DNA of 11,280 bases from Candidatus Phoenicimicrobium oleiphilum (GTDB lineage Bacteria; Atribacterota; Phoenicimicrobiia; Phoenicimicrobiales; Phoenicimicrobiaceae): positions 1-11,280 of the forward strand of contig JBDIWJ010000048.1 of NCBI GenBank assembly GCA_039638295.1. Direction: 5' to 3'. Of the stretch, positions 1 through 11,280 are shown piece by piece (within the stretch, counting starts at the first letter, position 1; each line of letters begins with the position of its first letter). The position numbers were made by a program, and so were the translations under genes. The notes under the pieces were generated by a model. It saw only the letters and a program-made list of their open reading frames with translations. It did no database searches and was not told where the DNA came from.

Positions 1-767
1 ATAAAAACAAAAATAGTAGTTCCAAAAAAATCTACAATAGCTTCCAATGAAATAAGTCCCTTTAATTCAACTTTTGACCATATCAGCTTTAATCCATCTT
101 TTATATCAGGAAATATTCCTTTAAGCTTTCTTTTTTCTTTCTTTTTGTCCTCTGCTTTAATAAACATTTCTGATATTCCTGAAAGAATAAAACTAATTCC
201 ATCAAGCAATATTACTGCTCTCAAACCTACTAAGGAAATAAGCACCCCACCTATTGCCATCCCGATAAGTTGAGAAAGATTATTTGTCATTGAAATCAGG
301 GCATTAGCCTGGGAAAGACTGCGGTCTTCTACAGCACTTGGAATTAAAGATTGCAGGGCAGGGCTAAAAATTGTAGAACAGACCTGGATAGCAAAGACAG
401 TGGAAAATAAAACCCAGACCTGAAATAGTTTTACGTTTAAAAATAGACTCAAAAAAAGAAGTAACCCACCACTTATTAAATCAGTTACAACGAGAATATT
501 TTTCTTTTTCCATCTATCTGCCCATATCCCAGCAAATGGTGATAATATTATAGATGGAATGGCACTAGCCATCAAAATAAAACTTACCGTAGCTGCTCCT
601 CCTAACTTACTAACTGTTACCCATAATATTGAAATGAAGAATATAGCCGAACCTGTGTTGGAAACGAGTCTTCCCAAAAACAAAAGTAAAAAATCATTAT
701 TTTTTGTTAGAAGATTTAACCCTTGAAGTGCTTTTGAATGGTTTGAAATATTAACTACCTCTTTCAT
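1..767 (-). CDS. MFS transporter, DHA3/MefA-like efflux family (partial; runs off the left edge)
   Basis: Not in the ORF track. Manual translation from ATG 767 is open to the window edge: MKEVVNISNHSKALQGLNLLTKNNDFLLLFLGRLVSNTGSAIFFISILW...SPFAGIWADRWKKKNILVVTDLISG (MFS motif A, GxxADRxxKK)...IFSPALQSLIPSAV...ANAL...LDGISFILSGISEMFI. The start could instead be ATT at 749, behind GAGGT (757-761). Confidence 0.9.
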   Translation of the reverse strand, partial: MKEVVNISNHSKALQGLNLLTKNNDFLLLFLGRLVSNTGSAIFFISILWVTVSKLGGAATVSFILMASAIPSIILSPFAGIWADRWKKKNILVVTDLISGGLLLFLSLFLNVKLFQVWVLFSTVFAIQVCSTIFSPALQSLIPSAVEDRSLSQANALISMTNNLSQLIGMAIGGVLISLVGLRAVILLDGISFILSGISEMFIKAEDKKKEKRKLKGIFPDIKDGLKLIWSKVELKGLISLEAIVDFFGTTIFVF

Positions 768-880
768 ATACTGTAATAATTTTTATTTATTCCTTAACGC
801 TAATAGCATAATATAGGTGATATTTATAAAATTAACTTTATTATTCCTTAATGTCTATATTAAAACTTTTAAATATTATG

Positions 881-1351
881 TCAGCATTTATATTCCATCT
901 TTATAAATTCATCACCGCCTATTAAAGTATCCTTTTGGTAAACATCGGTTATTTCAAATCCAGCCCTTTCATAACATTTGATTGCTCGTTTATTGAAAGA
1001 CCGGACTTCTAAAGCAATCTTTTTGCTGCCATACCTCTTTTTGCACTCATTTTTTAACAATTCCATAAGCATATTGCCTAAACCTTGCCCACATGATGAA
1101 GGCTTTAATCCCAATCCAACTAAAACAAAATCCTTGTTTTCTATAAATCTTATATATCCACATAAATTATTACTCTTATCGATAACGGCAGTAAACTCAT
1201 TCTTTCTTTTTCCCTCTATTGTTATCCCCCATCTTTGTTGGTTTAGAGTATCCCAATCCGGAAAATTATAAACAGAATAAATTCCTTCGTATTTCCAAGA
1301 ACATATTTGTCTTGCATGATCTTCAGTTAAGATTTCTAATCTTAAATCCAT
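881..1351 (-). CDS. GNAT family N-acetyltransferase
   Basis: 156 aa. Acetyl-CoA-binding motif A variant (GLKPSSCGQGLG) and C-terminal LEVRSFNKRAIKCYERAGF (NxxAxxxYxxxGF). Confidence 0.9.
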   Translation of the reverse strand: MDLRLEILTEDHARQICSWKYEGIYSVYNFPDWDTLNQQRWGITIEGKRKNEFTAVIDKSNNLCGYIRFIENKDFVLVGLGLKPSSCGQGLGNMLMELLKNECKKRYGSKKIALEVRSFNKRAIKCYERAGFEITDVYQKDTLIGGDEFIKMEYKC

Positions 1352-1593
1352 TACCTATCACTTACTTTCTTTGTAATACAATATAAAGAATCTGGTTTAT
1401 CTGAAGTAAGATTCTGGCATAAGGATGAGCTTTTATGTGTATAAAAAATTAAAACTTTGATTTAAATTAGTATACTTTTAACTTTTAGCTAACATAACCC
1501 ATACGAGCACATTATATGGAGGACACGCTGGCTTTTCTTGAGAGTACCATTTTGCTATAATTTTATCACTACAGCAAGCCTTAACTCTGACTC

Positions 1594-2826
1594 TCATATT
1601 TTCTCTTTTATATTTGGGATGGTGTATAAAAATAGGCCAAAAAATACTATAAATATTCCTATTAATATCATCAGTATTCTAACGCTAACTATGTTTAAAG
1701 CATAACCACTGAGAGCAAGTGATATTGGTAAAAGTCCGTTAGTTAATGCTCCTATAATGGCAAAGACTCGTCCTCTTTTTTCATTTGGTACTGTTTTTTG
1801 GACGAATACATTTATTAATATATTAACTAATGCGAATAGGAATCCAATTTTAAATGTCAGTATAAGTATATACCATAAACTAGGAAACAATGTAAAGAGT
1901 ATAAGCAGACTACCAATCCCAACTATCCCCCATATTACTGGGATATATTTTCGCTTTATCTCAGGCGAGATAGATAAAAAAGTTCCTCCCGATACAATCC
2001 CAAGTGAAAACAATGTCATCAAGATGCCAAATTCCTTTGTACCGTATCCCAAATCCATCTTTATGTATTTTGCGAAGATCAAATCTACTGGTCCAATGAA
2101 GAAGCTCAAAGCGGTGAAAGTAATGAGACCTTTCATCAAATAATCACGCCTCAAGATGAAATGAAAACCTTCTTTCAGATCCTTTACGGTGTTCTTAATT
2201 GTTATATTAGCGGAAGGAGGAGAAGTCATCGAGATAAATATCTCGCTTATTCCCGAAAAGAAGTAAGTGATGCCATTAATCAGGAAGACAAATGGAGCTC
2301 CGAAAATAGCTATTAAGAGCCCACCGACACCAGGCCCTAAGACATTCGAAATTTGGTTTCCCGTAGTATATAGAGAATTCGCGCGTGTAAGGTATTTATA
2401 AGACACTATATTTGGAATACTCGAAATAATAGCAGGATAGAAGAAAGCCCCAGCGAATGATATCAACAATGCTATGACATAGAGATGCCCTATCTGTAAG
2501 GTACCTTTCAATGCCATTAAAGCCATCCATACAATAATAACCCCTCTAAACAAGTCTGCCAACACTATAATCCACTTTCTACTCGTTCTATCCACCACTA
2601 CTCCTGCTATTGGGCCAATTATAACACGTGGGAGTACCGAAAGGGCAAATACATTCCCAAGTACGACTGAAGACCCTGTAACATCCAGCACCCACCACAT
2701 CAAGGCTATGTTGTATATTGAATCACCGAATGCAGATACTATTTGTCCTATCCACAACAGTAAGAAATTCTTGTTAAAAAGATTCGTCTTTAGACCAACC
2801 TTTGTGCTTTCATCTTTAGTAAGTAT
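1594..2826 (-). CDS. MFS transporter, DHA3/MefA-like efflux family
   Basis: About 12 hydrophobic segments, motif A GVVVDRTSRK and C-terminal VPNEKRGRV. The ORF track starts at TTG 2757, but the frame is open upstream through the typical TM1 lead-in NKNFLLLWIGQ to an in-frame TGA at 2833-2835. GAGGT (2836-2840) lies 9 nt before ATA 2826, so the start is uncertain (2757 or 2826). Confidence 0.88.
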   Translation of the reverse strand: MLTKDESTKVGLKTNLFNKNFLLLWIGQIVSAFGDSIYNIALMWWVLDVTGSSVVLGNVFALSVLPRVIIGPIAGVVVDRTSRKWIIVLADLFRGVIIVWMALMALKGTLQIGHLYVIALLISFAGAFFYPAIISSIPNIVSYKYLTRANSLYTTGNQISNVLGPGVGGLLIAIFGAPFVFLINGITYFFSGISEIFISMTSPPSANITIKNTVKDLKEGFHFILRRDYLMKGLITFTALSFFIGPVDLIFAKYIKMDLGYGTKEFGILMTLFSLGIVSGGTFLSISPEIKRKYIPVIWGIVGIGSLLILFTLFPSLWYILILTFKIGFLFALVNILINVFVQKTVPNEKRGRVFAIIGALTNGLLPISLALSGYALNIVSVRILMILIGIFIVFFGLFLYTIPNIKEKI

Positions 2827-2881
2827 AGTTTCTCAACCTCTTTTCCTATTGTCTACTAATACCATTAATATTAATGGTATG

Positions 2882-4066
2882 CTATTCAAGAATGTCTATG
2901 GCTTCTTTATATCTTTTCTGACAAGCCAATGCAAAACTTGCTATTTGTCTTACTCCATAATTCTGAGAGATTTCAGCATATTTTAGAATTTGTTCACTAA
3001 TTCCTTCTAAAGGAGAAAATCCTTCTGTAATACTTGTTAGAAGAGCTTTTAGGTTCAATAACACATTCAATGTTCGTTCTTGTATAGGCACCAATCCATT
3101 AGAGTGAAGTTCTAATACCTTGATTTTTTTTGTTTGTTTTTGATTGCTCTGTTTTTTAATATTTAGCAATTTAGTTATTTCTTGACTTTTTTTAACTGGT
3201 AAGGAAGAAAGTAAACTATTCAAGCTAATCAAATCATTATGATTAATTAATTTATAAGTATACTCTTTTTTAGTATACAAGTCCACATATTCTTTCAATT
3301 CATTGATCGTCTTCTTCCGGGACATCAGAAAAGATGACAACCAATTTAATTCGTTCAAATTCTCTTTGTTGTTACTCTTGGGGCGACTAAAAAAATATCT
3401 TAGAGCTTTATCACTTTTTGTAGATATTACTAATGCGCTTTCCCAAAGTGGTATCAAAGCTACTCGGGCACCTTGCCTGCACAATTCATTGGCAATGCTA
3501 TAGGTAATAGATTTGGGTTTATATTTTTCTGGAAACATAAAATTAAGTGCAATATATTTCATTGATGGATCAAAACAGTGCAAAAAAACAAAACCATCTT
3601 CAGGGATATGCTTCAAATATTTTCTCAAATATTCTTCTTTATATGCTTTCTGAACATATCCATTTGTATCATACAAATCTACGACTATAGCATTAAATAG
3701 GTTATTAGGATTTAAACTATCAATGTAAGTACAAGCTTCCTTTATGACAATAGATAGATTACTATATGACAACCATCCTTTCCTTTTTAACTCTGCTATC
3801 ATTTCTTCATTGTTTTCCACGCCTATACAAGTAGGAGTTACTTTCCATTTGCTTAAAATTTCCAGCGTTGTACCTCCACCAAGTCCTAACATTAAAAACT
3901 TTTTTACTTGTGACTTATAAACTGCCCATGCAAGATAATCCCAGTAATTGAAAGTAATATTATATTTATCTGGCTTTATTGAAAAAGTCATTTGTTTTTG
4001 ATACTTTTTTCCCTTGATTTTTATTATTCTATCCTTTATCAATAGTTTTATAGACATTTCCTTCAC
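2882..4066 (-). CDS. Class I SAM-dependent methyltransferase of spermidine-synthase-like fold with a C-terminal extension
   Basis: Motif I FLMLGLGGG, acidic residue after beta2 (GVENNEEM) and FNAIVVDLYD. The C-terminal ~170 aa are unassigned and end in a TPR-like helix pair (RQIASFALACQKRYKEAIDILE). The start may be ATG 4057 rather than GTG 4066. Confidence 0.75.
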   Translation of the reverse strand: MKEMSIKLLIKDRIIKIKGKKYQKQMTFSIKPDKYNITFNYWDYLAWAVYKSQVKKFLMLGLGGGTTLEILSKWKVTPTCIGVENNEEMIAELKRKGWLSYSNLSIVIKEACTYIDSLNPNNLFNAIVVDLYDTNGYVQKAYKEEYLRKYLKHIPEDGFVFLHCFDPSMKYIALNFMFPEKYKPKSITYSIANELCRQGARVALIPLWESALVISTKSDKALRYFFSRPKSNNKENLNELNWLSSFLMSRKKTINELKEYVDLYTKKEYTYKLINHNDLISLNSLLSSLPVKKSQEITKLLNIKKQSNQKQTKKIKVLELHSNGLVPIQERTLNVLLNLKALLTSITEGFSPLEGISEQILKYAEISQNYGVRQIASFALACQKRYKEAIDILE

Positions 4067-4973
4067 TCCCCAATCTTAAGTTTAATTTTTTCACTTTGCA
4101 AAATATATTCATTGCCTTCTCATTCTTTTCAAAACTAATGTTTGTAGCCCAATTTATAACTTGCCAATGATGTCTATACCATAATCTCCAATGTTCGGGG
4201 GACTTTAATATCTCTTCTCGGAAATATTTAAAACATTTCTCTGCTCCTTCCTGAACCTTATTTGTCTCAATAAAAACAGCTGGATATATTATAAGCTCTC
4301 TTTTTCCTTCGTTAATTCTCGTTATTACTGGAATAATAGGTTTATGAAGCCTTCCCATTAATCGAAATAGCCCACTTCTTATATAAATCTTAGAAGAAAG
4401 AAAATTCACATTAATAGGTGAACTATCGTTTCCAACACCTGTATTTCCATCTAAATAAACGTAGACCCAGTTATTATTAGAGATTAATCTGTACAATTTT
4501 AATCCAATATTAACTTGCTCTGCAATAATAAATTCGACGCCTACTTTCTTATACTTCAGCTTTATTTCTTCATTATATGATTCTTGGTCCACAAGCATTA
4601 TAAATTTTAGTTTAGGAACTCTTTTTAGCAAAAGTTGGGCAACAGCACGTGGACCATATCTATAATCACCATAATGAAAACTAAGTAATATCCCCCCTTC
4701 TTTTACCCATTCCATTATATTCTCCACTCCTATAATCTTATCAAAACCTGAAAATAAATACGGATGCTTTCTATAAATATTTGTCATCATATTATGGATG
4801 CGATAATTAATCCATGTCTTTCTAATAGAAGACCTTGGTTGTATGGGAAGAATTTCTTTGATTAGATTTGAATAGCTTATAAAATAATCGAAAGAAACCC
4901 CCTTAAACTTTTCATAAAGAAGGGAGATCTTAAGGAGTTCTTTGCAAAACCATAATAATAATTTTCTATCCAT
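4029..4973 (-). CDS. LpxL/LPLAT-superfamily acyltransferase (lipid A lauroyltransferase-like)
   Basis: GGILLSFHYGDYR (cf. LpxL HxGNWE block), VYVYLDGN (cf. LxDQ), VNFL, PIIPV and the C-terminal PEHWRLWYRH (cf. PEQWxWxHRRW). Confidence 0.72.
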   Translation of the reverse strand: MDRKLLLWFCKELLKISLLYEKFKGVSFDYFISYSNLIKEILPIQPRSSIRKTWINYRIHNMMTNIYRKHPYLFSGFDKIIGVENIMEWVKEGGILLSFHYGDYRYGPRAVAQLLLKRVPKLKFIMLVDQESYNEEIKLKYKKVGVEFIIAEQVNIGLKLYRLISNNNWVYVYLDGNTGVGNDSSPINVNFLSSKIYIRSGLFRLMGRLHKPIIPVITRINEGKRELIIYPAVFIETNKVQEGAEKCFKYFREEILKSPEHWRLWYRHHWQVINWATNISFEKNEKAMNIFCKVKKLNLRLGSEGNVYKTIDKG

Positions 4974-4987
4974 CCTTATCCTAAATC

Positions 4988-6064
4988 CTACAAAAATAAT
5001 CTCTTTAGACCATCTAAACAGTATGCTAAAATTTTAATCGGTAAATCATTTTTTTCTATTCCTTTTCTAACAGAGCCTTCTACCAAATCTATTCCGCAGA
5101 AAGGGATTTTTAAGCAAAATAATCTATCTAAAAAATTTAATAATTCCATTCCCATAGGTCCTCCTGAAACGGGAGAATCAACAAAAGGGAACTCAATCGG
5201 ATTAATACAATCCAAGTCTATGCTCAAGTAGAAACAAGCTTTGGGATTTTCTTTTTTAATGTTATCTAATTTATTAAATATTTGATCTGTAGAAAAATCT
5301 AGAAATCGAAATACTTTTGGGTCTTCTTTTAATTGAAAAACAGAACGTAACCCTCTAGTACCTATTTGAAGAATCTTTTCCACTTTATCACATTTTAATA
5401 GGTGGAACACAAAGTTGCTATTATTTATATCTTCGAGAGGTATCACTCTATAGCCAGAGTCATGGTGTGCGTCAAGTATTACTAGAATGATATCTTTTCC
5501 AAACTGCTCAATAAAAGCTTTCAGAATAGCATATGTTATAGAGTGATCTCCTCCAATTGAAATTAAAACACTTTGATCAGGTAAATTTTTAACAATTGTA
5601 AAGATGACTTCATAAAGATGATTTAAACTCTCCAGGGGTAAAAGTAAATCTCCTAGATCTTTAATTTTTAAGCCCCTAAATAATTTTCTACCTTGTCCAA
5701 TATCAAAAAGTCCAGAAGTTCCATTCCCTTCTATCTGGGAGTAAATCGGGTATTTGCAACTTAATTCTCTCAAATGTTTAGGAAATTTGTCGACTGTTGT
5801 GTTTGGAGATATTGAGCCTTGCTTATATGGGATCCCCAATAACAATACGTGTGGTTGACATGGAAAATATTCTTTGCAATTAAAAAAGTTGTATGGATAT
5901 TTCTTTAGCAAATATCCTAACTCATTATAAGGATTCTTATCTTGCGTTTCCAAAGAAAGTTTATCTCGTTTTGTTTTCCAAAATTCTTCAAAATTTCCAT
6001 CCGTAACTATGAGTTTTCCTTCTCCAGAATAAAAAATGTATTCAGGCTTTTTTATGGTCTCCAT
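4988..6064 (-). CDS. Arginase/agmatinase (ureohydrolase) family protein; candidate peptide arginase
   Basis: Mn-binding motifs GGDHS, DAHHD and SIDLDCINP, plus LLGIPY, DLGD, QIGTRG and PVSGG. About 70 aa of N-terminal extension precede the fold. Confidence 0.88.
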   Translation of the reverse strand: METIKKPEYIFYSGEGKLIVTDGNFEEFWKTKRDKLSLETQDKNPYNELGYLLKKYPYNFFNCKEYFPCQPHVLLLGIPYKQGSISPNTTVDKFPKHLRELSCKYPIYSQIEGNGTSGLFDIGQGRKLFRGLKIKDLGDLLLPLESLNHLYEVIFTIVKNLPDQSVLISIGGDHSITYAILKAFIEQFGKDIILVILDAHHDSGYRVIPLEDINNSNFVFHLLKCDKVEKILQIGTRGLRSVFQLKEDPKVFRFLDFSTDQIFNKLDNIKKENPKACFYLSIDLDCINPIEFPFVDSPVSGGPMGMELLNFLDRLFCLKIPFCGIDLVEGSVRKGIEKNDLPIKILAYCLDGLKRLFL

Positions 6065-6644
6065 AAAATAAACCTTTCTTATAAATACGAATTAATTTTT
6101 CGATAATCCTTATTATAATTGTAGTGCTAATTACTCCCAAAGATAAATTAAATATACCCTTGTGATCAATAGCATTTTGTACTATAAGTATTTCTGAAAT
6201 AACTCCACTTGTATACAAAATATAAAATATTGTCCATTGAGCAAGTCTAAACAATTTATTCATCAGTTTTCTATTCCATTTAGATGTTATTTGGAAGATA
6301 TAATAGCCATCTGAGGGTTTAACCGGGACAATATTTAAAGCAATAACCCCTAAATATAAGAAACTAAACAACTTAAGATTTGGAAAAATATTTTGTAATA
6401 AAAAAGCAAAATTAAACAAAAACTGAAACGTAAATCCTGCACTTGTTAGCACTAATTTTTTCATATCAGAGATATCAATATCAAATTTTATTTTACTATA
6501 GTACAAGGGAGGAACTTTTTTTACAATTACTATTTTCCCATTTCCACCTATAAAGTATGCTGTAATTAAATGGCCAGCTTCATGAAGCAAAGGCATAAAC
6601 AATATATAAAAGATAATTAATATACTTTCCAAAATCATTTCCAT
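6042..6644 (-). CDS. Site-2 protease / peptidase M50 family membrane zinc metallopeptidase
   Basis: HEAGH (HExxH) in TM1, NIVPVKPSDG (NxxPxxxxDG third Zn ligand) and several TM segments. Overlaps the next gene by 23 nt. Confidence 0.85.
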   Translation of the reverse strand: MEMILESILIIFYILFMPLLHEAGHLITAYFIGGNGKIVIVKKVPPLYYSKIKFDIDISDMKKLVLTSAGFTFQFLFNFAFLLQNIFPNLKLFSFLYLGVIALNIVPVKPSDGYYIFQITSKWNRKLMNKLFRLAQWTIFYILYTSGVISEILIVQNAIDHKGIFNLSLGVISTTIIIRIIEKLIRIYKKGLFYGDHKKA

Positions 6645-6701
6645 TATACTTTCTTGGATATTTTAATTTAATGCTTAAATTTGAATAAAATGTAAAGCAA
6701 T

Positions 6702-6737
6702 TGACATAGAGGCAACTTTAAAGTTGCCTCTATGTCA
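6702..6737. terminator. Perfect 36-bp inverted repeat after the precursor gene (leaky terminator or mRNA-stabilising hairpin)
   Basis: TGACATAGAGGCAACTTT/AAAGTTGCCTCTATGTCA is an exact 18+18 palindrome, 14 nt after the TAG of the 32-aa ORF. Only an interrupted U-tract (ATTGCTTTACATTTT) follows on the minus strand. Confidence 0.75.
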
Positions 6738-6751
6738 TAAAGCTGTTTACT

Positions 6752-6850
6752 CTAGCATCTAATAACACATCTGATCACGTTACATTCTAAATCTTCCAAT
6801 TCTTTAGGATCAATTTTTTCTAATTCCTTTTTCTTCTCATTTTTACTCAT
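6752..6850 (-). CDS. Small peptide, putative RiPP precursor (32 aa: MSKNEKKKELEKIDPKELEDLECNVIRCVIRC)
   Basis: Manual translation from ATG 6850 to TAG 6752-6754. SD AAAGGAGGTGA ends 8 nt upstream. A charged leader-like N-terminus precedes a Cys/Arg repeat C-terminus. It is followed by a hairpin and is the first gene before the tailoring enzymes. Confidence 0.85.
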   Translation of the reverse strand: MSKNEKKKELEKIDPKELEDLECNVIRCVIRC

Positions 6851-6891
6851 TGTGGAACTCACCTCCTTTCTTGTAATTTTTCATCTCTTAC

Positions 6892-6920
6892 AACATATAA
6901 AGGTAGAACTATTACTGCAA
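6892..6920 (-). promoter_or_regulatory. Candidate sigma70-type promoter for the precursor operon
   Basis: TTGCAG (6920-6915), 17 nt spacer, TATGTT (6897-6892), about 40 nt upstream of the precursor ATG. Imperfect matches in AT-rich DNA. Confidence 0.35.
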
Positions 6921-7094
6921 CATTGAATAGCATCACTCACCTGCTACCAAACAATTTTGACAAATAATTTAGTGCATAATACAAACATTGTCTTTAGTTG
7001 CTGTTTTTGCATTCTCCCAACATTGTCCAACTGATTTTTCCCTTGAAACATGATGCCATTAGTAATAAGGAACGGGGCTATGAACATTTCCTAC

Positions 7095-7232
7095 TTATCT
7101 CTCCACCATAACAACCACAGGTGAAAAACTCTGTACCTGTTGGCTATCAGAAGATGGATCTCCTAAAGCTACGCTATTTATACATAAGCTAAGACTAAGA
7201 GCAAGAGCTACGGCAATGAAAAGTTTTTTCAT
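7095..7232 (-). CDS. Small secreted peptide, putative quorum-sensing propeptide (45 aa: MKKLFIAVALALSLSLCINSVALGDPSSDSQQVQSFSPVVVMVER)
   Basis: Manual translation from ATG 7232 to TAA 7095-7097, with SD GGGAG upstream. Classic Sec signal: MKK, a hydrophobic h-region and a SVA/ALG cleavage-like site, then a ~21-aa tail. Divergent from the TPR+HTH regulator. Confidence 0.78.
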   Translation of the reverse strand: MKKLFIAVALALSLSLCINSVALGDPSSDSQQVQSFSPVVVMVER

Positions 7233-7376
7233 TTATATCTCTCCCTAATATTTATATTTTTTTGAGTATATACCTCTCCATATGACTTTCAAATTTGGCA
7301 GGCCCTAGAACGCCTATGAAATAAAGGTTTGAAGGGCATAATTTTTATGTATTTTTGGCATTTATAAAAATTCGGT

Positions 7377-7431: not shown

Positions 7432-9087
7432 ATGAACATAAAAGTACCTCAGGTAATTGATGTACTGATGAAGTATGGTTCATTTGCCATGCCCTTGGTG
7501 AATTGGACCTTAAGCAATGATAATCTAAATCCTGCCTGGGAAGAATATTTTAAAGCTATAAGATACGATTGGCAGAAGGAATACACCCTCGAACTTAAGT
7601 GTATAGATCGAGGAATTAGAAGATGTAGAGATGATCAGACGGTTAAGTACCTGCTTTTGTCCTTGGAACTCTCTGTACTTCAAAATCTTAAAATGCCAGA
7701 AGGAAATAGATTGTATATTAAGTTGAGGAGAGAATTTTACAAGGTGCCAAAATTGGCGAGAAAGACAGTCGCTACAACTTTATTGAGTTATCCGTCTTTG
7801 AATATGAATGAAACGGACTTGGCAAAAATACGATTATGGAGTCAATATTATCAAAATGATAGGTCAACACAGGTATTCATTCTTTTGGGGAAGGCGAGGA
7901 AAAAGATAAAAACGGGAAACATTACAGAAGGTATAGCTCTTTACTTTAAAGGCTTGAGAATTGCGAAGGCAATTCCTCACCCTACAGGTATAATAGATAG
8001 TTTGAACGACTCGGCATGGTATATGCGATATAGCCATCCGCATTGGGCACTTAGATTTGCCAATCAGGCAATGTATTGGGTTGGATGGTATCGTGAAGAT
8101 GCCAGAGGCGTGTTTTACGTATTTGATACTTTTTTTGAGATCCAGAGAATAGTTAGTGACCAAAGATTATGTGAGACTGCAAATTTGATAGCTTCATTAC
8201 AGAAGTATCTTTCTTCAGGACAAGGGAGAAGCAAAAGGGAATACTACAAAGAAACCATCCAAGGCTGTAAATACTTTATCTTTGATCTCAAAAGCTCAAT
8301 GTACAAAAATTCCAATTCCCTGAGAAATTATCTGAGAATTTTTATGAAATCCATATCCTCAGCTTCAGTGGATTCAAACCTATCCAGAGGAAAACTATCT
8401 GCCATATTAAATGGTAAAACAAAAACCGTGCGCGGAGAAACGATAAGAAAGTTGGTAAAAGGATTGAAGCTTAAACCAAATCCATTAAATGATCCTGCAC
8501 CCCTTATCAATGAATGGATGAAAATGAAGATAGAGGATGCATTTTTCGATGCTCTTGAGAAACTCAAGGGAATAAAGCCAAATGATAGAATCGTATTACT
8601 CTTATCCACATATATGAGTATTCTTGATAGGAAGGAAAAACTTTCTTATCTAAGCAGAAAAAGGAAATTGAAACGGGCGATTGAATTCTGTACAGCGGAT
8701 ATGCATAAATTCACGAATTTTATGTCCAACAGATACGAGACAATGAGATTCGTATCTGATATGATAAGCGAAATGCATCCATTTTTAGAAGGAAGAAAAG
8801 ACCTTGTAAAGAAGTTTTTAGGAAAGATGCCCAAGAAGAGGATGAGGATGTTTGCTGCAGATTATGCCGAATTGACAGAGGGAGACCGTAAGACTGTTGA
8901 TGTCTTTGCAAGGGACTACACAAGATACGACTTGAGGTGGAAAGTTTACCTAAAATTACCTGTCGAATTGAAAGAATTTGTGGAATTCTTTCATCTCAAG
9001 AAAAGACCATCTACGCTTGCATCTTTTGCGTCTGAAAGACCGGCTGAGAGGAATAAGATCTTACGTGTATTTCAGGCACTCCGATGA
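7432..9087 (+). CDS. TPR-like repeat + XRE-type helix-turn-helix transcriptional regulator (candidate peptide-sensing, RRNPP-like receptor)
   Basis: 551 aa with a strong SD. TPR-like helices (LGKARKKIKTGNITEGIALYFKGLRIAKAIPHPTGIIDSLNDSAWY...ALRFANQA) and a Cro/C1-like HTH at about residues 305-345 (SISSASVDSNLSRGKLSAILNGKTKTVRGETIRKLVKGL). Confidence 0.72.
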   Translation: MNIKVPQVIDVLMKYGSFAMPLVNWTLSNDNLNPAWEEYFKAIRYDWQKEYTLELKCIDRGIRRCRDDQTVKYLLLSLELSVLQNLKMPEGNRLYIKLRREFYKVPKLARKTVATTLLSYPSLNMNETDLAKIRLWSQYYQNDRSTQVFILLGKARKKIKTGNITEGIALYFKGLRIAKAIPHPTGIIDSLNDSAWYMRYSHPHWALRFANQAMYWVGWYREDARGVFYVFDTFFEIQRIVSDQRLCETANLIASLQKYLSSGQGRSKREYYKETIQGCKYFIFDLKSSMYKNSNSLRNYLRIFMKSISSASVDSNLSRGKLSAILNGKTKTVRGETIRKLVKGLKLKPNPLNDPAPLINEWMKMKIEDAFFDALEKLKGIKPNDRIVLLLSTYMSILDRKEKLSYLSRKRKLKRAIEFCTADMHKFTNFMSNRYETMRFVSDMISEMHPFLEGRKDLVKKFLGKMPKKRMRMFAADYAELTEGDRKTVDVFARDYTRYDLRWKVYLKLPVELKEFVEFFHLKKRPSTLASFASERPAERNKILRVFQALR

Positions 9088-9472
9088 TCAATTATTCAGT
9101 CCTACTGTGGCTGAAGATATTGCCTTTGGTCCTCTAAACTTAAGAAAAAATCGTCAAGAGACTGAAAAGATTCTAAAAGAAACCTTAGAGACGTTGGGTT
9201 TAGCTGGTTTTGAAGATAGGATTACTTATAATCTTTCCTATGGAGAAAAAAGATTAGTTTCTCTGGCTACGGTATGGGCGATGCAGCCAGAGATTTTATT
9301 GCTTGATGAACCTACCATCTGGCTTGATGAGGGGACTATCGAAAAGATAGCTCAAATCTTAAATAGCCATCATCAGTTATCTTACATAATTATCTCTCAT
9401 GACAAAGAATTTTTAGAAGAAACCACTAATTGTACTTACCTTATGGATAACGGAAAGATAAGAAAAATATAA
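9067..9472 (+). pseudogene. cbiO: 5'-truncated CbiO/EcfA-type (Co/Ni ECF transporter) ABC ATPase
   Basis: Retains the post-Q-loop segment SDDQLFSPTVAEDIAFGPLNL, signature LSYGEKR, Walker B ILLLDEPT and H-loop ISHD. There is no Walker A. The first ~33 aa of ORF 8978-9472 are off-frame regulator sequence. Confidence 0.85.
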
Positions 9473-10938: not shown

Positions 10939-11168
10939 TACGCAATATACGATACAAATTAGTCGTTAGTATTAAATACAAGTTCACAGTTTTCAGTAAG
11001 TAGGGACGTATTGCTATATGCCTGTCTAACTCCATGACTGGTTAACTAATCTTTAACTGGCAAACTGGCTAACCGGGTAGCTGGGTAATTAATATCCTAT
11101 CTGCTAGTACACGATAACCAATTTGAATTCTTGTTCTCTTCACGCAATATTCAATACGCAATACGAAT
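10939..11168. repeat. Intergenic 7-mer/8-mer tandem arrays and a degenerate GTAG REP-like element
   Basis: TACGCAA-TATACGA-TACAAAT (10939-10959), GTAGGGACGTATTGCTATATGCC (11000-11022), TTAACTGG-CAAACTGG-CTAACCGG-GTAGCTGG (11053-11084) and CACGCAA-TATTCAA-TACGCAA-TACGAAT (11141-11168). Confidence 0.55.
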
Positions 11169-11280
11169 TAATACTTGACAGGTCAACTTCGCCATTTAAT
11201 TCAATTTAAACTCTCCTAAACCCTTACTGCAGTTGTTTTTTCCTTTTTTTTATCCCATATATATAGTGAAATGATTATAT

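Follow-up and report, generated by a model that had tools for sequence, protein, structure and literature searches.

In the selidamides (kamptornamide, phaeornamide, and the nostolysamides), an arginase converts Arg to ornithine (Orn) and the side-chain amine is fatty-acylated; arginase-free members carry the acyl group on Lys (PMC8784127 and PMC13647313). We analyzed an 11,280-nt contig of Candidatus Phoenicimicrobium oleiphilum (C48 of genome G000, here the window; the genome is 1.65 Mb and 91% complete). It carries a gene cluster predicted, by analogy, to work like the selidamides. The minus strand holds, in order, a 32-residue open reading frame (ORF), a hairpin, and genes for an M50-like peptidase, an arginase, a 314-residue protein, an S-adenosylmethionine (SAM)-fold protein, a major facilitator superfamily exporter (MFS1), a GNAT, and a second MFS protein (MFS2). 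An earlier interpretation made from the letters alone (the sequence-only reading) had proposed this single-strand gene set as a new cluster for a peptide synthesized by ribosomes and modified post-translationally (RiPP), and every part it named was present in its place. We regard the cluster as belonging to a real, conserved, and uncharacterized RiPP family that extends beyond the window; its cores are short and repeated, and it includes a probable new lipidation enzyme.

Selidamide clusters combine a GNAT acyltransferase, a PF12640 arginase, LanM-made lanthionines, and an NHLP/Nif11 precursor with one core (PMC8784127, PMC13647313). In contrast, the present cluster has a lysophospholipid acyltransferase (LPLAT) fold, a PF00491 arginase, a short leader, repeated units of four to six residues, and M50 or M16 peptidases. 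The window has no class II lanthionine synthetase (LanM) and no NHLP/Nif11 precursor, and its GNAT lies outside the conserved core. Enteropeptins have a PF00491 peptide arginase (KgrD), an Arg next to Cys, and N-methylornithine (PMC12703449); the present cluster shares the arginase family and the Arg-Cys pair and may also yield N-methylornithine. However, enteropeptins need a radical SAM enzyme for the thiomorpholine and an Fe-S methyltransferase, and they use no acyltransferase (PMC12703449). In the window and the other listed loci of its kind (type A), radical SAM enzymes were absent, and the fold of the SAM enzyme is that of spermidine synthases.

The ohk cluster of Ohtaekwangia koreensis, a cryptic RiPP cluster, places a proposed LPLAT, ohkE, directly beside a peptide arginase (PMC12703449, Table S3). 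OhkE is absent from the main text of that paper as available, and we liken it to the window protein by description only. The ohk cluster differs in OhkR (PF12640/UPF0489), DD(I/V)LF-type precursors, radical SAM, cupins, and S41 and S8 peptidases. In the daptides (MpaP; PMC10036551) and the Bacillus subtilis epipeptide (YydH), an M50-type membrane peptidase removes the leader. The window differs from both, with no C-terminal Thr chemistry, no epimerase, and a 200-residue M50 that has no fused RiPP recognition element (RRE). Lipolanthines, goadvionins, lipoavitides, and aphotorhaptins join a RiPP to a dedicated fatty acid pathway, as do the sister clusters (type B) described below. However, these four classes acylate the N terminus by a GNAT (PMC13647313), whereas here an LPLAT-fold protein and an arginase occur without lanthipeptide enzymes. 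The precursor types listed for peptide arginases in the available text of PMC12703449 do not include the present one. A literature search outside most subscription journals and the selidamide supplements, which may list such clusters, returned no paper on this enzyme set or these core motifs.

The precursor family

The 32-residue ORF has the strong Shine-Dalgarno (SD) site and the downstream hairpin that the sequence-only reading had seen: the SD site is aggaggtg, and the hairpin is a perfect 16 bp. The leader is acidic/basic, and the tail, NVIRCVIRC, holds the only two Arg residues of the peptide, also as had been noted. We sought precursors within the fetched loci. All ten type-A loci, from nine genomes and about four lineages, contained one: the window, L003 (genome G025; L084 is the identical sequence), L006, L007, L169, L170, L181-L183, and L234. 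The homologs stand in the same position as in the window, are 29 to 40 residues long, and end in [VI][VI]RC-stop, with one, two, or four units. Lysinibacillus mangiferihumi (L006) has two tandem precursor genes ending in NVIRCVIRC, and the Bacillus stratosphericus precursor (L007) ends in NVVRCVVRC. Five kin loci (L169, L181-L183, and L234) end in a single VIRC, and L170 has four DIVRC units. This variation in copy number points to repeated short cores. The R-C junction is invariant in all type-A precursors and in the precursor of genome G125 (type B), and the window core has no Ser or Thr. The window's Cys23 is not conserved, with homologs showing A-D-R at that place. We therefore rejected Cys23 as a core residue, and the ten-residue core proposed earlier, C-N-V-I-Orn-C-V-I-Orn-C, was not supported.

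As a control, we scanned 152 generic arginase loci whole (1.75 Mb), leaving out L008, L084, L085, L087, and L001-L007 as family-linked. None of the 152 held such an ORF. In the organism's own genome, a single one of 1,026 SD-led small-ORF candidates (alternative starts counted) ends in hydrophobic-hydrophobic-R-[C/A], and it is the precursor. The two L006 copies differ by seven synonymous codons and one replaced codon. Likewise, the same tail is written with different synonymous Arg, Val, and Ile codons in the window and in Bacillota. Judged by this codon divergence, the precursor is under purifying selection across phyla. The neighborhood search for co-conserved short Arg/Cys-core ORFs that the sequence-only reading had suggested thus bore out its small ORF as a conserved precursor. 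A short gene-encoded peptide with leader and core is co-conserved with tailoring enzymes, as is general for RiPPs, and we consider it very likely that this is a RiPP pathway using this precursor.

Core enzymes and sister clusters

The arginase subfamily is small and full-length: of 308 matches, 11 proteins reach E 1e-24 or better. L006 and L007 repeat the window's order of precursor, M50, arginase, acyltransferase, and SAM enzyme, and in both an MFS lies close by. Further type-A loci, lacking the SAM enzyme, came from profile searches with the acyltransferase (L169, L170, L181-L183, and L234). In a profile test of nine type-A loci, the M50 peptidase, the arginase, the acyltransferase, and an MFS were each found in all nine, the SAM enzyme in four, and the GNAT in two. 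Named genes occupy the slots from precursor to MFS in all type-A loci. The arginase adjoins the acyltransferase in every arginase-bearing type-A and type-B locus viewed. Petrotoga mexicana (X927_06035/06040) and a Bacteroidales metagenome-assembled genome have the two genes under adjacent locus tags (judged by the tags alone). Radical SAM, LanM, and YcaO were found in none of the nine type-A loci listed, and the window likewise had no radical SAM match. Therefore, the arginase, the LpxL-like acyltransferase, and the M50 peptidase stood as conserved partners, and so did the earlier observation that no class-defining enzyme is present. The methyltransferase is an accessory rather than a core enzyme.

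Genome G025 belongs to the same family but to another genus. From MFS1 through the precursor it is 99.4 to 100% identical to the window, compared with 96% for the GNAT and 93% for the start of MFS2. In the flanks, identity is 79% for a 45-residue ORF, 89% for a 551-residue gene, and 87% for ychF. MFS2 is truncated in G025, and cobalt transporter genes come next, with no further enzyme at left. Further class-defining enzymes on that side, where the sequence-only reading had advised looking, were rejected on the basis of this flank. The two type-A loci with a GNAT homolog are both of the window's own lineage, and both the GNAT and MFS2, which had been counted as pathway members, diverge faster than the core. 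We removed both from the pathway and rejected the GNAT as the acylating enzyme. Because the GNAT is rare and diverges fast, the LpxL-like protein is the likely acylating enzyme.

An acyltransferase homolog was found in 2 of 86 genomes of the window's phylum. This rarity, together with the near-identity to the G025 core, points to recent acquisition of the cluster by horizontal transfer. Elsewhere, homologs were present in 1 of 49 Bacillus-genus genomes and, in further genome samples, in 7/301 and 5/401 (two weak partial matches dropped); a Clostridia-class sample gave none in its 399 scored genomes (two more unscored). Weak matches in G807 and G806:C93 lie among envelope and housekeeping genes, where neither arginase nor precursor was seen, so distant PF03279 matches are not all RiPP-linked. 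L170 lies on a 13-kb contig (G091:C4) amid replication-, integrase-, and resolvase-like genes (by eye, from translations), which suggests that this four-unit cluster is on a plasmid or mobile element.

The four enzyme genes of the window overlap or almost abut, with distances of -23 nt (M50-arginase), 14 nt (arginase-acyltransferase), and -29 nt (acyltransferase-SAM enzyme). The precursor and M50 genes are 107 nt apart, and the later distances are about 55 to 70 nt (SAM enzyme-MFS1), 242 nt (MFS1-GNAT), and 113 nt (GNAT-MFS2). Pfam assigned the arginase to PF00491 (E 1e-29), and both MFS proteins and the GNAT were also above the cutoff. The matches to M50 (E 0.03) and to spermidine-synthase/SAM (E 0.004) fell below it, and the acyltransferase alone had no Pfam match. 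For these three, confirmation came from motifs, family alignments, and folds.

The arginase has the two-Mn ligand set of PF00491 (GGDH, DAHxD, and DxD) and the substrate Glu, and residues H174, D198, H200, D202, D283, D285, and E329 are invariant in 24/24 alignment rows. It carries an N-terminal extension of 60 to 70 residues. It is not of the OspR type (PF12640): Pfam returns PF00491 only, and the sequence has GGDH, DAHHD, and SIDLD but no EEHxEAF, the PF12640 motifs being taken from PMC12703449. In a quick tree, type-A and type-B arginases form one clade (18 of 44 rows; Shimodaira-Hasegawa-like approximate likelihood ratio test [SH-aLRT], 99). The acyltransferase has the LpxM/PatA fold, which is the LPLAT fold of PF03279, but His-X4-Arg takes the place of the His-X4-Asp/Glu motif. 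Arg105 aligns with the catalytic Glu of LpxM, the one mutated in 5knk. Among members that have the His, Arg at His+5 is found in 28/32 close and 87/107 distant acyltransferases. With Arg in place of Glu, the site would, we suggest, fit an amine better than a hydroxyl as acceptor.

HExxH and N-x-x-P-x-D-G motifs identify the M50 peptidase in 8/8 type-A copies listed. The M50 profile also reaches an RRE-M50 fusion in L008 (E 1e-6), which matches the NF041824 (daptide) and NF058609 (YydH) models below the cutoff. The SAM enzyme has the spermidine-synthase fold with a helical C-terminal addition. Its top Foldseek matches are 1uir, 3anx, and 4yuv (E 5e-8), with partial cover and template modeling (TM) scores of 0.36/0.44; the Atlas value is 0.92. 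The Asp in GGGDG of spermidine synthases selects decarboxylated SAM. This Asp is missing here: the aligned segment reads G-L/F-G-G/A-G-T in 8/8 rows. The window copy ends (2882-2884, minus strand) 14 residues short of the 405-residue variants P0346 and P0368. By eye, the arginase N terminus, the acyltransferase C terminus, and the SAM-enzyme N terminus resemble RRE hairpins, but we tentatively rejected half-RREs there, as 6/6 profile comparisons with these short slices, a weak test, gave probabilities below 1%.

Type-B clusters are carried by Paenibacillus (25/93 genomes) and by G125, G540, and G507. Their acyltransferase is beside or fused to M16 peptidases. The preceding genes encode FabH-like enzymes, a PreATP-grasp ligase, a pyridoxal phosphate (PLP) decarboxylase, an acyl carrier protein (ACP), acyl-CoA dehydrogenases, a MATE transporter, and a phosphopantetheinyl transferase; a divergent helix-turn-helix (HTH)-tetratricopeptide repeat (TPR) regulator and a short secreted peptide also occur. 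The ACP, FabH-like enzymes, acyl-CoA dehydrogenases, ATP-grasp ligase, PLP decarboxylase, and phosphopantetheinyl transferase fit an acyltransferase that uses acyl-ACP. The ATP-grasp ligase, PLP decarboxylase, and ACP resemble the BtrJ/BtrK/BtrI route to an amino-acyl chain, and the type-B lipid may be an amino fatty acid.

We examined the upstream region in 18 of the 25 Paenibacillus carriers and the entire cluster in 6. All 18 regions encode a precursor with the leader M-x-x-K-A-T-P-I-T and 5 to 20 Arg units (for example, VSARA, VEARA, and DVATRA), ending in RA-stop and containing no Cys. Some reach about 20 tandem penta- or hexapeptide units (L184:8039-8275, L233:16375-16749, and L232:3410-3646). 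The G125 precursor has three units and ends in RC-stop. One Arg per unit is the element common to type-A and type-B precursors. G540 and G507 have kept the acyltransferase, but the subfamily arginase is absent from both locus and genome; the best arginase match there is about E 1e-24, compared with 1e-123 or better in carriers. The three precursor genes read there end in KC-stop. This pairing of one Arg per repeat with an arginase, and of terminal Lys with none, is the strongest pointer to a modified side-chain amine. It mirrors the arginase-free, Lys-acylated npu selidamide (PMC8784127).

In the acidobacterial loci L008, L085, and L087, the three-enzyme module is joined to a cross-linked RiPP; its M50 and its arginase, the latter from a different clade, are each fused to an RRE, and its acyltransferase is a distant one. 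L008 (5348-10981) also has a radical SAM/SPASM enzyme, and its precursor ends in CNCRPKVLK.

Proposed pathway and alternatives

We observed a precursor family, its constant association with arginase, acyltransferase, and peptidase genes, and these enzymes' folds and motifs. From these, we think it fairly likely that the operon turns a repeated [Val/Ile]-[Val/Ile]-Arg-Cys precursor into short ribosomal lipopeptides by way of Orn acylation. The leader would recruit the enzymes, and the PF00491 arginase would hydrolyze each core Arg to Orn. The LPLAT-fold enzyme would then transfer an acyl group from acyl-ACP onto the freed delta-amine, the donor being host fatty acids in type A and a cluster-made chain in type B. 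Clusters that have the spermidine-synthase-fold enzyme may use it to modify an amine, with SAM methylation more probable than aminopropylation. Cleavage of the membrane-held lipopeptide by the M50 peptidase (M16 in type B) would then give units such as Val-Ile-Orn(acyl)-Cys. The MFS would export these units, which are probably antimicrobials or signals.

Acylation could instead occur on the new N terminus after leader removal, as in lipolanthines and goadvionins, leaving Orn free or methylated. N-terminal acylation after proteolysis is the rule in lipolanthines, goadvionins, lipoavitides, and aphotorhaptins (PMC13647313), and type B has a dedicated acyl pathway as those classes do. However, we consider this unlikely because it leaves unexplained both the penultimate Lys of arginase-less clusters and the constant adjacency of arginase and acyltransferase. 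The invariant R-C junction and the absence of the usual acid of His-X4-Asp/Glu would also fit Cys S-acylation, S-to-N acyl transfer, or an Orn-lactam that caps and releases each unit. Orn-lactam and N-S shift chemistry is known. However, all the Paenibacillus precursors examined lack Cys while having the same arginase clade and acyltransferase, and such chemistry seems a little less likely still.

It is improbable that the product is one uncut nine-residue peptide, NVI-Orn-CVI-Orn-C, disulfide-closed and lipidated, which is near the picture drawn in the sequence-only reading. The same core enzymes accompany precursors of one to four units in type A and of 5 to 20 units in type B, and a single-unit precursor has one Cys. 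Even so, the window, L006, and L007, all of which carry the methyltransferase, retain the nine-residue tail. The least probable alternative is a small-molecule pathway in which free Arg or agmatine would give an ornithine lipid or an acyl-polyamine and the small ORF would be incidental. The best named matches are indeed agmatinases and polyamine aminopropyltransferases, and an LPLAT with a GNAT resembles OlsA/OlsB ornithine-lipid synthesis. However, the GNAT is missing from 7/9 type-A loci, a peptidase occurs in every case, the precursor keeps its position and is under purifying selection across phyla, and the Arg/Lys switch tracks the presence of the arginase. A hydroxamate siderophore was rejected, as the loci have no N-hydroxylase. 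For the uncut peptide, a further parallel is that M50 peptidases cut the leader once in daptides (PMC10036551).

Several points weigh against Orn acylation and release of short units, for which the support comes from sequence, linkage, and folds. Many of the loci are kin, amounting to about six independent lineages, and the Lys control consists of two closely related genomes whose precursors also hold internal V-A-R or I-V-R. It may be that hydrophobic-hydrophobic-Arg marks a place of cleavage or recognition and not the residue that is modified. Cys is not universal, being Ala in Paenibacillus. The unit register and cut sites given here are provisional, and a single M50 peptidase would have to split the repeats. 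RRE-like parts are unsupported by the profile comparisons. The window arginase has Asn in place of the His commonly found before the substrate loop. In the literature examined, no LPLAT-fold enzyme was reported to acylate a peptide amine; the fatty-acylating RiPP enzymes named in the available text of PMC13647313 (October 2026) are all GNATs. The only characterized PF00491 peptide arginase requires a pre-modified substrate (PMC12703449).

We put forward more tentatively, and with slightly more doubt than belief, that these clusters form a new, widespread RiPP class that is common in Paenibacillus. In it, a His-X4-Arg lipid A-type acyltransferase would N-acylate Orn or Lys, precursors of up to about 20 units would yield lipo-tetra- to lipo-hexapeptides, and exchangeable donor modules would set the acyl chain. 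Such a class would be the ribosomal counterpart of short nonribosomal lipopeptides. LPLAT-fold peptide acylation, if true, would be a second, unrelated route to site-specific lipidation, which is wanted for peptide drugs. It would also assign a role to several hundred LpxL-like proteins that have no annotation (447 clusters at E 0.001 or better), many of them in bacteria without lipid A, and would bring a further type of PF00491 peptide arginase, the second, and an extreme case of multi-core precursors. The three-enzyme core is less than 3 kb, and Bacillus, Lysinibacillus, and Paenibacillus are culturable carriers. Genome mining keyed on class-defining enzymes would overlook this family.

Regulation and flanking genes

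Table 1. Coordinates and supporting evidence for features of the window
Feature	Position	Strand	Evidence or remark
Precursor peptide, 32 residues; leader about residues 1-23, two [VI][VI]RC core units at 6755-6781	6752..6850	-	Positional homologs; synonymous divergence
SD site (aggaggtg) of precursor	6860..6867	-	
Perfect 16-bp hairpin downstream of precursor	6702..6737	-	Folding z -7.7 (0/200 shuffles equally stable); putative function
M50-type membrane zinc peptidase, 200 residues; conserved core gene	6042..6644	-	HEAGH, N-x-x-P-x5-D-G, four hydrophobic segments
PF00491 arginase-family enzyme, 358 residues; conserved core gene	4988..6064	-	All Mn ligands
LpxL/LpxM/PatA-fold (LPLAT) acyltransferase, 314 residues; conserved core gene	4029..4973	-	His100-X4-Arg105, Asp175
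Spermidine-synthase-fold SAM enzyme, accessory; 391 residues from SD-led ATG (394 from GTG 4066)	2882..4057	-	
MFS exporter 1, Mef/EntS-like, DHA3 type	1594..2826	-	99.8% identical to G025
Generic GNAT, 156 residues; outside conserved core	881..1351	-	
MFS 2, extends past contig end; outside conserved core	1..767	-	Truncated in G025
Upstream unit including 45-residue signal-peptide-like ORF (7095-7232)	6875..7317	-	Possible regulatory peptide; putative role
551-residue divergent protein, candidate regulator	7432..9087	+	Central HTH match E 0.02, below cutoff; same position in G025

The hairpin is likely to be a partial terminator or a stabilizer that keeps the precursor transcript more abundant than the enzyme transcript. 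A promoter scan of the window returned 37 sites versus 37.8 expected. The stretch occurs as contigs in three oil-field or crude-oil RNA runs from two studies, and intergenic parts are covered too, which indicates presence and not expression. The MFS1 N terminus has no ATG, GTG, or TTG. An ATA stands about 10 nt after a GAGGT site (2824-2826, minus strand), identical in G025, and may be the start codon.

The 45-residue ORF and its upstream DNA are 89% identical to a unit on contig C25, where it heads another RiPP cassette of a different kind. This cassette (L237:1146-7851) lies between its copy of the unit and cobalt transporter genes. It encodes a 50-residue precursor ending in CKMPVPR, a radical SAM/SPASM enzyme, a 149-residue membrane protein, an ApyD-like B12 radical SAM enzyme, and an ABC-F protein that could confer self-resistance to a ribosome-targeting product. 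This arrangement suggests a site of cassette exchange governed by one common regulatory unit. The C-terminal part of the 45-residue peptide varies between copies, and its DNA identity to G025 is below that of its flanks. Related clusters pair an Rgg, TetR, or HTH-TPR protein with a peptide. It is possible that the 45-residue peptide and the 551-residue protein form a peptide-receptor quorum-sensing pair outside Bacillota; the latter showed no similarity to the type-B HTH-TPR regulator.

Between the 551-residue gene and ychF lies a 3' fragment of cbiO (cobalt ABC ATPase; 9067-9472, plus strand), which is 86% identical to the intact C25 gene and is a rearrangement scar. Short intergenic repeats common to other contigs occur at 1374-1485, 10959-11116, and 11175-11277, and the last of these marks several contig ends.

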